Made by a program: the position numbers and the translations under genes. This document shows positions 54,268 through 55,373 of a DNA stretch of 64,000 nucleotides, in pieces. This DNA comes from Escherichia coli. Its GTDB lineage: Bacteria > Pseudomonadota > Gammaproteobacteria > Enterobacterales > Enterobacteriaceae. The stretch is from NCBI RefSeq assembly GCF_041886205.1, contig NZ_CP169029.1; one strand, 5' to 3'. A model generated the notes under the pieces. The model saw nothing but the letters and a program-made list of their open reading frames with translations, made no database searches and was not told the DNA's origin. Positions within the stretch are counted from its first letter, which is position 1, and the number at the start of each line of letters is the position of its first letter.

Positions 54268-54668
54268 ATTTTTCCCTAAATAGTCAGTATGTTGAAACTT
54301 TTTATTGTGAGATTTGTTGCAAAAACCATCTGACCATAACGCCAGCTGCCGGGGAAAGGAAGGATTATCTGCGGTTTTTGTGATGAAAAGCAGGATGATT
54401 ATATTTAACCCAGTAAATACGTTCCTGTCTTTTTTTGTATAAAAAATGTTTATTACTCGATGTAAGGATACATTAATTTTACGTTTATTATGATGAATCC
54501 TCGGCAAATGAGCGAAATTTGATAGAACATTTATCTGCTGTACGATTTAATGAACTTAATGATACAGCATTACAAAAACAATCGAAGTTTATAAAGATGA
54601 TTTCTGATTGACCAGCCCCCTACCCTACAATGGTGATTAATTTTATTACTCGCGATGGAGATGATGAT

Positions 54669-54872
54669 ATGAATATATCATATGTGAATAGCAACAAAAC
54701 GACATCTTTACCTGTTGAGCTAGATGCACTAAATAATAAAGATATCTCTTATGCCAAAGATTTCTTTTTATACATAGAAACACAGTTAAAAATTGCAAAA
54801 GATTTTTTAGACCTGGAGAAGAAGTATCAAGTTCTATTGCAAGTAAAGTTTTTCACGCATTTATTGATTTAG
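54669..54872 (+). CDS. yjbS: Small AT-rich ORF, probably yjbS
   Basis: 67 aa from MNISYVNSNKTT; low GC; in the aphA-tyrB gap. Expression unverified. Confidence 0.45.
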   Translation: MNISYVNSNKTTSLPVELDALNNKDISYAKDFFLYIETQLKIAKDFLDLEKKYQVLLQVKFFTHLLI

Positions 54873-55373
54873 TTAACAAAATCAGGGGTAAGAAAGACTT
54901 TATGTATATTTGCACGCTTTGCTGTTTTGCCGAGGAGGTTAAAGGTGATTATTCTCATTACAGGACCTTTTTATTTGATATTGGTAATCAATATAAGGTT
55001 AAACTTACACAAAGCGGAAAAAAGAGTTCTCTTTAACATTAGAATTTAACGATACTATAATTGAATCTCAGAAAGTCACAGGCAATAAGGCAAAGCATAT
55101 TCTTGAGGATATAGAAATATTCTATCGTAACAAACCCGATACTTATTATTAAATTTAATAATGGTTAGATGTGCAGAAATTATTACTCCACCCAAAAAAA
55201 CAGGATAAGGAATTCCAGATAATTGGGATAAACTTAACAATAAAAGAACTAACAACGTTTATTATCTCTCACGTAGAACGATGGCATCAAAAAAATCATC
55301 TATAAAGAAAGAGTGAAAGCGACGACAGTTTAATTTCACTGCAGGCTGGGTAGCTCCAGCCTGCTTTCCTGCA

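Follow-up and report, generated by a model that had tools for sequence, protein, structure and literature searches.

Why does the Escherichia coli chromosome carry, between aphA and tyrB, a spacer of more than a kilobase that is far richer in A and T than the DNA around it and appears to encode next to nothing? We addressed this question in a 64,000-nucleotide stretch of contig NZ_CP169029.1 (assembly GCF_041886205.1), referred to below as the window. The spacer, positions 54268-55373, fills the interval exactly, with the aphA start codon ending at 54267 and the tyrB stop codon starting at 55374, and it is 99.9-100% identical to its K-12 counterpart, in which yjbS is the only annotated gene. 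Its GC content is 0.324, as opposed to 0.527 for the window overall, which places the spacer at z = -3.5 relative to non-overlapping segments of 1106 bp; 292 of 62,895 sliding windows have a GC content this low, and in 200-bp windows the local value drops to 0.275-0.33. The original prediction, made from the letters alone, had placed an AT-rich stretch between these two genes and had seen in it no open reading frame (ORF) of at least 60 codons apart from a yjbS-like one. The position agrees to the base with the gene borders, the skewed composition is borne out, and the ORF listing likewise contains a single ORF of at least 60 codons inside the spacer, at 54630-54872 (80 codons from an upstream ATG), of which yjbS is the 67-codon version. 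A 317-codon, TTG-started ORF proved to be aphA with a spurious 5' extension. As argued below, the spacer is very probably a foreign islet of the E. coli lineage that contains a silenced and decaying ORFan gene, present as a young pseudogene in strains of the K-12 type.

The central observation is that yjbS, as judged from alignments, represents only the 5' part of a longer ORFan gene, which a large proportion of E. coli strains still have in intact form. In SC475 and many other strains, one ORF runs from the yjbS start through a downstream 44-codon ORF to a TAA equivalent to window positions 55150-55152. In a global alignment over 486 nt, only three substitutions and two deletions of one base each set the copy in the window apart from the uninterrupted 161-codon allele of CE0026a (locus L009). 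The gene is oriented divergently from aphA and convergently with tyrB, and the following features could be assigned to it.

54657-54660, plus strand: GGAG, a Shine-Dalgarno-like motif 8 nt 5' of the ATG at 54669, from reading the sequence.
54669-55152, plus strand: pseudogene of the single gene of the islet (a 161-aa ORF when intact), from alignment to intact alleles.
54669-54872, plus strand: annotated yjbS, 67 aa, the 5' fragment of the pseudogene, from the RefSeq K-12 annotation and comparison of translations.
54747-54764, plus strand: an 18-bp unit, TCTTATGCCAAAGATTTC (SYAKDF), in single copy here and in two or three tandem copies in other alleles, from alignments.
54802-54808, plus strand: frameshift 1, a G missing between 54807 and 54808, with GATTTTT-TAGACC here and GATTTTTGTAGACC in intact alleles, from alignments.
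54902-55036, plus strand: a 44-codon ORF (ATG), the middle fragment of the gene in the ancestral frame, from the ORF listing.
55018-55023, plus strand: frameshift 2, an A6 run here as opposed to A7 in intact alleles, from alignment.

Thus, residues 1-46 of YjbS are ancestral, and the 21 residues 47-67 are read out of frame. The product of the 44-codon ORF, MYICTLCCFAEEVKGDYSHYRTFLFDIGNQYKVKLTQSGKK, matches the stretch MYICTLCC...KLTQSGKK of the intact protein, and the C-terminal piece of the gene sits in the third frame. We favor the start at 54669 (MNISY...) over the ATG at 54630 because of the GGAG motif located 8 nt upstream. Differences in the copy number of the 18-bp unit (1, 2 or 3) account for the three lengths of the intact protein, 161, 167 and 173 aa. 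The original prediction had listed a second small ORF of ~45 codons at ~54932-55069; such an ORF exists, but its true span is 54902-55036 and no stop codon ends at 55069. Its term "gene-poor" was misleading, given that a nearly full-length pseudogene takes up 484 of the ~944 bases of the islet. Its proposal that the locus encodes unannotated small proteins or small RNAs (sRNAs) gained no support either: the small ORFs are out-of-frame pieces of one ancestral gene, and the Rfam 15 covariance models, run with permissive filters, yielded no match in 54268-55373 at E ≤ 1.

Comparison of alleles indicates that the gene has been lost repeatedly. Among 11 distinct alleles sampled at even steps down the hit ranking, seven contain an intact ORF of 161, 167 or 173 aa, and the exact 161-aa protein is encoded on at least 1000 contigs. 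The four broken alleles are those of K-12 (two frameshifts), PapRG-06-3 (-2, in the region of the A run), AHM8C160RI (-1, in the A run) and O157:H7 (-10, across the A run). On this evidence, the gene appears to have been inactivated at least four times independently, three of them at one homopolymer, and the A run at 55018-55023 emerges as a recurrent mutational hot spot and site of inactivation. At frameshift 1, the 41-mer with the G deleted, as in K-12, was found in 1519 genomes and the undeleted form in 2311, with ~500 genomes left unclassified due to nearby single-nucleotide polymorphisms; the 41-mer of the K-12 type at the A run occurs in 1665 genomes. The reverse polarity, with the long ORF as the derived state, was rejected: intact alleles are spread over lineages up to 6% apart, the K-12 allele forms a tight cluster, and other lineages carry different lesions. 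Insertion sequences (IS) have also entered the aphA-tyrB interval, namely, IS1, IS4-like (ISVsa5) and IS5 elements in NZ_CP172108.1, NZ_CM161506.1, NZ_CP091427.1, NZ_AP021946.1 and NZ_CP042865.1, which are natural or laboratory isolates. In an evolution experiment on adaptation to macrophages, clones from two populations carried one and the same IS1 insertion in yjbS, at position 193/204 (PMC4999529).

Substitution patterns provide moderate evidence, from small counts, that the intact form is, or until recently was, under coding constraint. The pairwise ratio of nonsynonymous to synonymous polymorphism (pN/pS) among intact alleles ranges from 0.14 to 0.61, and in the most divergent intact pair (L003 and L014), 8 of the 15 differences are synonymous, compared to the 19% expected (binomial P = 0.0035). 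Nucleotide diversity (pi) follows the same order, being lower in the ORF (0.024) than in the islet flanks (0.036 and 0.064).

In RefSeq, the Prokaryotic Genome Annotation Pipeline (PGAP) treats the intact 161- and 167-aa ORFs as a pseudogene, labels it "frameshifted" and in many cases adds a hypothetical protein of 83 aa as a separate entry (L002 1902-2124; L003 1902-2405; L009 502-987; L015 502-1005). The likely cause is that the truncated K-12 YjbS serves as the reference protein.

The islet itself is delimited by comparing the spacer across genomes, which divides it into three parts.

54268-54396, minus strand: the ancestral aphA upstream (promoter-proximal) block, 129 bp, outside the islet; common to all three E. 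coli states of the locus and alignable with the Salmonella tyrB-aphA spacer.
54397-~55340, no strand assigned: the AT-rich islet, ~944 bp, specific to E. coli/Shigella, with a GC content of 0.304 (54400-55340) and no counterpart in Salmonella or islet-free E. coli.
55341-55364, no strand assigned: a hairpin rich in G and C, GCAGGCTGG-loop-CCAGCCTGC, separated by 9 nt from the stop codon of tyrB, from folding.

With presence defined as a match over at least 80% of the islet length, the yjbS islet was found in 4328 of 5426 complete E. coli genomes (about 80%). In 19 genomes, there is instead an "empty" spacer of 336 bp, and in B2-like strains, the slot is filled by a 13.8-kb island encoding a sensor kinase, a sigma-54-dependent regulator, a second 2-oxoglutarate dehydrogenase, succinyl-CoA synthetase (sucCD), a DASS transporter and an Ldh-family oxidoreductase. 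This is the KguS/KguR island of the uropathogenic E. coli (UPEC) strain CFT073, described in the literature as "inserted between tyrB and aphA" (PMC3694859). The slot between aphA and tyrB thus behaves, in the genomes compared, as an integration hot spot with three states. The short spacer would be ancestral and the islet an insertion, because the Salmonella spacer is only 186 bp long and consists of the conserved aphA block with a hairpin directly after it. The variation in presence and length that the original prediction had proposed to look for is therefore real, and its suggestion of a decayed, horizontally acquired segment fits what we found: AT-rich DNA that is absent from Salmonella and some E. 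coli, replaced in B2-like strains, and containing a gene that is frameshifted here but intact elsewhere. The other side of tyrB is variable, too, given that strains whose spacer is empty or holds the kgu island have pnuC and a gene for an AAA-family ATPase beside tyrB where the window has alr (L004 4612-6132; L007 1-1180).

On the aphA side, the upstream block is the least diverse part of the interval (pi = 0.011), and homology stops after ...GCAGGAT at 54396. On the tyrB side, the hairpin has a folding free energy of -19.2 kcal/mol on the plus strand and -21.1 kcal/mol on the minus strand (z = -2.8 and -2.2, respectively). We assign it to the ancestral 3' structure of tyrB and not to the islet because its stem is similar to that of the hairpin beside tyrB in the empty allele, GCAGGCGG...CCGCCTGC; it is thus probably the ancestral 3' hairpin of tyrB. 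No T run follows it on either strand and the terminator scan made no call there, nor did the scan detect any canonical terminator that could serve tyrB or the gene of the islet. The islet junction (54390-54400) breaks a GATCACA motif in the aphA upstream block, at the end farthest from aphA (...GCAGGATCACA changed to ...GCAGGATGATT); this motif is conserved in Salmonella and in islet-free E. coli.

What the intact gene encodes was approached through its protein. Searches of Pfam, NCBIfam, PADLOC and PHROGs assigned it to no family, and the best candidates, a BamG match of 13.5 bits (cutoff, 250 bits) and a PHROG match with E = 0.26, were below significance. In a word-indexed search, all 64 of the database relatives came from Escherichia or Shigella, many of them being frameshift variants themselves, and an exhaustive profile search of 1.84 billion representative proteins recovered only fragments of the islet protein itself. 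One such fragment, P0064, which carries an HlyE Pfam domain, covers 18% of the query, looks chimeric and was set aside. No match was found in phage records, and apparent "plasmid" matches were chromosomes or mislabeled records. A 17-kb record labeled as a Klebsiella oxytoca plasmid (NZ_CP069917.1) carries yjbS. A 9.5-kb contig attributed to Flavobacterium paronense CECT 8460 (L016, NZ_JAUFQN010000013.1) is E. coli contamination, being 99.5% identical to the K-12-like aphA-yjbS-tyrB region. In the databases searched, the islet protein thus appears restricted to Escherichia/Shigella.

The intact protein is hydrophilic and near neutral (isoelectric point 7.6), without a transmembrane-like segment. 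Its AlphaFold2 model, of moderate confidence (predicted local distance difference test [pLDDT], 68; predicted template modeling score [pTM], 0.66), consists of a disordered N-terminus rich in Ser, Thr and Asn (residues 1-32, pLDDT < 50), three helices, a five-stranded antiparallel sheet and a C-terminal helix. No known fold could be recognized in it. A match to SipA from a search of PDB sequences was rejected, both because it was not significant (E = 0.68) and because the aligned residues of the query are partly β-strand in the model; the matched region of SipA has an all-helical fold. The disordered N-terminus, this nonsignificant match and the presence of an EspX5 gene 13 kb away could hint at a type III secretion substrate, although this is speculative and none of the three is evidence of membership.

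The silencing part of our interpretation draws on published work. Table 1 of PMC3661553, by Shavkunov and colleagues, lists a 318-bp "promoter island," 4266514_318, between tyrB(+) and yjbS(-), with the entry K in the H-NS column (chromatin immunoprecipitation on microarrays [ChIP-chip] by Kahramanoglou and Oshima); the same table marks the interval as foreign by both GIST and the analysis of Price et al. (PMC3661553). According to the literature, the interval behaves as a transcriptionally silent promoter island. Its approximate place in the window can be given by mapping.

54873-55340, no strand assigned: the interval that would contain the published 318-bp tyrB/yjbS promoter island, made up of the decayed 3' two-thirds of the gene and the DNA downstream of it.

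The composition, the three-state polymorphism, the intact alleles, the exact lesions and the restriction to Escherichia/Shigella come from our own comparisons, whereas H-NS occupancy and silence are taken from the literature. The best promoter-like match in 54873-55340 is TTAACA-17-TATAAT at 55033-55061. Of the suggestion in the original prediction that the stretch is an H-NS-bound regulatory region, the first half agrees with the published listing (PMC3661553), but nothing shows a regulatory role for aphA or tyrB.

Together, these observations suggest the following course of events. An AT-rich islet of ~0.94 kb, with a single gene for a soluble, lineage-restricted protein, would have been inserted between the ancestral aphA promoter block and the 3' hairpin of tyrB in the E. 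coli lineage. H-NS would nucleate filaments on the AT-rich DNA, silencing the promoter of the gene itself along with spurious internal promoters; silencing would then relax selection, such that the gene decays repeatedly at slippage-prone tracts. In the K-12 type, loss of the G after 54807 and contraction of A7 to A6 would have split the gene into three out-of-frame pieces, the first of which is known as "yjbS," leaving a stretch that may have no function beyond that of bound chromatin.

Several points weigh against this interpretation. A repeat search revealed no convincing boundary or flanking repeats and no mobile-element remnants at the islet ends, and no donor was found; with no donor, scar or flanking repeat to go by, horizontal acquisition is deduced only from composition and patchy distribution. 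E. albertii, E. fergusonii and E. marmotae were covered only by a peptide-pattern scan of species representatives, since look-ups with AphA aimed at other Escherichia species led to noisy E. coli assemblies or to Salmonella. By a rough estimate, the intact ORF is kept in 40-50% of islet-bearing genomes, a figure based on a small number of alleles and on a collection in which laboratory K-12 and O157 strains are heavily represented. H-NS occupancy and silencing are documented in one compiled table of ChIP-chip studies, and our simple scan for sigma-70 consensus sites, a simpler tool than PlatProm, found 7 promoter-like sites against 5.2 +/- 2.3 in shuffled sequences, i.e., no excess. Finally, yjbS has been reported as "essential only by TraDIS," that is, by transposon-directed insertion-site sequencing (PMC5821084), and a colistin study detected a TraDIS signal for yjbS, with transposon mutants changed in abundance (PMC9687012). 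However, binding by H-NS has been suggested to shield DNA from transposition, and this shielding was considered likely to underlie some of the false "required" calls made in Salmonella (PMC6785131, with reference to Kimura et al. 2016); the essentiality call, as well as the colistin signal, could reflect such protection.

One alternative, which could hold alongside a silenced foreign islet, is that the islet was recruited to regulate its surroundings through H-NS, by extending either the aphA promoter or the 3' end of tyrB, and is kept for the sake of its neighbors. The islet begins 129 bp 5' of the aphA start codon, directly past the conserved promoter block, and H-NS has been reported on the interval. 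H-NS filaments spread from AT-rich nucleation sites. However, strains whose spacer is empty or holds the kgu island have intact, conserved aphA and tyrB genes, neither of which therefore depends on the islet, and the noncoding DNA of the islet is the most variable part of the interval (pi 0.036-0.064) and a place where IS elements insert. Co-option, although compatible with foreign origin and decay, is therefore improbable.

We assign a similarly slim chance to the idea that the intact 161-173-aa protein is a functional factor of E. coli/Shigella, for instance a secreted substrate or a niche-specific factor, whose expression is turned on and off at the level of the population through slippage at the A7 run and the 18-bp repeat, with K-12 representing the "off" variant of a contingency-type locus. 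This scenario stays in consideration because the intact alleles show purifying selection and the lesions recur at one homopolymer; if true, an E. coli-specific factor switched in this manner would be moderately interesting.

Less likely still is that the 67-aa yjbS is a genuine functional small-protein gene in K-12, with the remainder of the spacer serving as its regulatory and terminator DNA. In its favor are the RefSeq annotation "protein YjbS," the GGAG motif 8 nt 5' of the ATG, and the two TraDIS reports, essentiality (PMC5821084) and colistin-dependent mutant abundance (PMC9687012). Yet the 67-codon frame exists only in alleles with the deletion of frameshift 1 (found in 1519 genomes, compared to 2311 with the undeleted form), the final 21 residues of its product arise from reading through in the wrong frame, and the product matches no family model. 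Moreover, IS1 insertions arise and persist both in laboratory evolution (PMC4999529) and in natural isolates, and few transposon insertions are to be expected in H-NS-bound DNA in any case (PMC6785131). An unannotated sRNA or other structured RNA, which might be brought to mind by a long and apparently noncoding interval that is flanked by genes in convergent and divergent orientation and contains one stable hairpin (55341-55364), is highly improbable, given that no Rfam family matches the interval, the hairpin is a tyrB-proximal element also present in islet-free alleles, and a protein-coding remnant with a coding-type substitution pattern explains most of the sequence.

A silenced and decaying foreign ORFan is of an ordinary, textbook kind, and the interval had already been catalogued as H-NS-bound foreign DNA. 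The yjbS islet resembles the H-NS-silenced AT-rich islets and promoter islands of K-12 (the Shavkunov/Ozoline set of 78; xenogeneic silencing as understood by Navarre, Lucchini and Oshima) in its GC content of ~30% within a genome of 51-53%, its patchy distribution among strains, its ORFan and its own listing as a promoter island (PMC3661553). It differs from them in being very small (one gene, ~0.94 kb), in that no mobile-element scars were found and in showing no excess of promoter sites in the simple scan; its reported H-NS binding is known from the literature. The KguS/KguR α-ketoglutarate utilization island (c5032-c5041 of UPEC CFT073) shares with it the slot and the same ~135-bp aphA-proximal block but is otherwise an unrelated, functional metabolic island of 13.8 kb with a two-component system and no common sequence beyond that block. 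Another parallel lies 13 kb away in the window, where the yjcF/EspX5 islet (40606-41898, plus strand) is likewise isolated, very AT-rich and single-gene and forms the lowest-GC stretch of the window (0.306 at ~40497). The yjcF/actP interval is also an H-NS-bound promoter island in the PMC3661553 table, and RefSeq annotates the K-12 gene as "T3SS effector pentapeptide repeat protein EspX5" (T3SS, type III secretion system). In contrast to the islet gene, yjcF is intact in K-12 and belongs to a recognized family, the pentapeptide-repeat T3SS effector-like proteins, whereas the islet protein has no family. In its pseudogene form, the islet gene is comparable to other frameshifted K-12 pseudogenes annotated as small "y-genes," in which a short coding sequence is the 5' fragment of a gene intact elsewhere and the lesions are single-base indels in homopolymer runs. 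Unlike the usual fragments of this sort, the K-12 yjbS fragment seems to have become the reference, hence the "frameshifted" labels that PGAP places on intact alleles.

The gene order around the spacer in the window is as follows.

49810-52632, plus strand: uvrA.
52667-53023, minus strand: yjbR.
53027-53443, minus strand: yjbQ.
53554-54267, minus strand: aphA.
From 55374, minus strand: tyrB.
56820-57899, minus strand: alr.

Between tyrB and alr, at 56763-56799 on the plus strand, lies the sole Rfam hit in 53000-57000, a sub-threshold match to naRNA4, a nucleoid-associated RNA derived from repetitive extragenic palindromic (REP) elements (32.5 bits; gathering score, 59.5; E = 0.004), which is probably a REP element. 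Another AT-rich stretch, with a 500-bp GC content below 0.38, is found at ~3900-4700 and comprises the 5' end of an ORF for a 742-aa dynamin-like protein (1921-4149, minus strand) and the spacer to a PhnA/YjdM-like ORF.

What our analysis adds to the existing record is the recognition of yjbS as a 5' fragment, the "frameshifted" labels carried by intact alleles, and the A7 run as a recurrent site of inactivation. For annotation, yjbS is best treated as a fragment of a frameshifted gene and not as a small protein. This has a practical side, since the classification of yjbS as "essential" by TraDIS has found its way into genome-recoding design (PMC13287592); in such work, the essentiality of yjbS is more likely to be an artifact of poor transposon access to H-NS-bound AT-rich DNA than to be real. 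The aphA-tyrB slot, with its three states, could in turn serve as a lineage marker.

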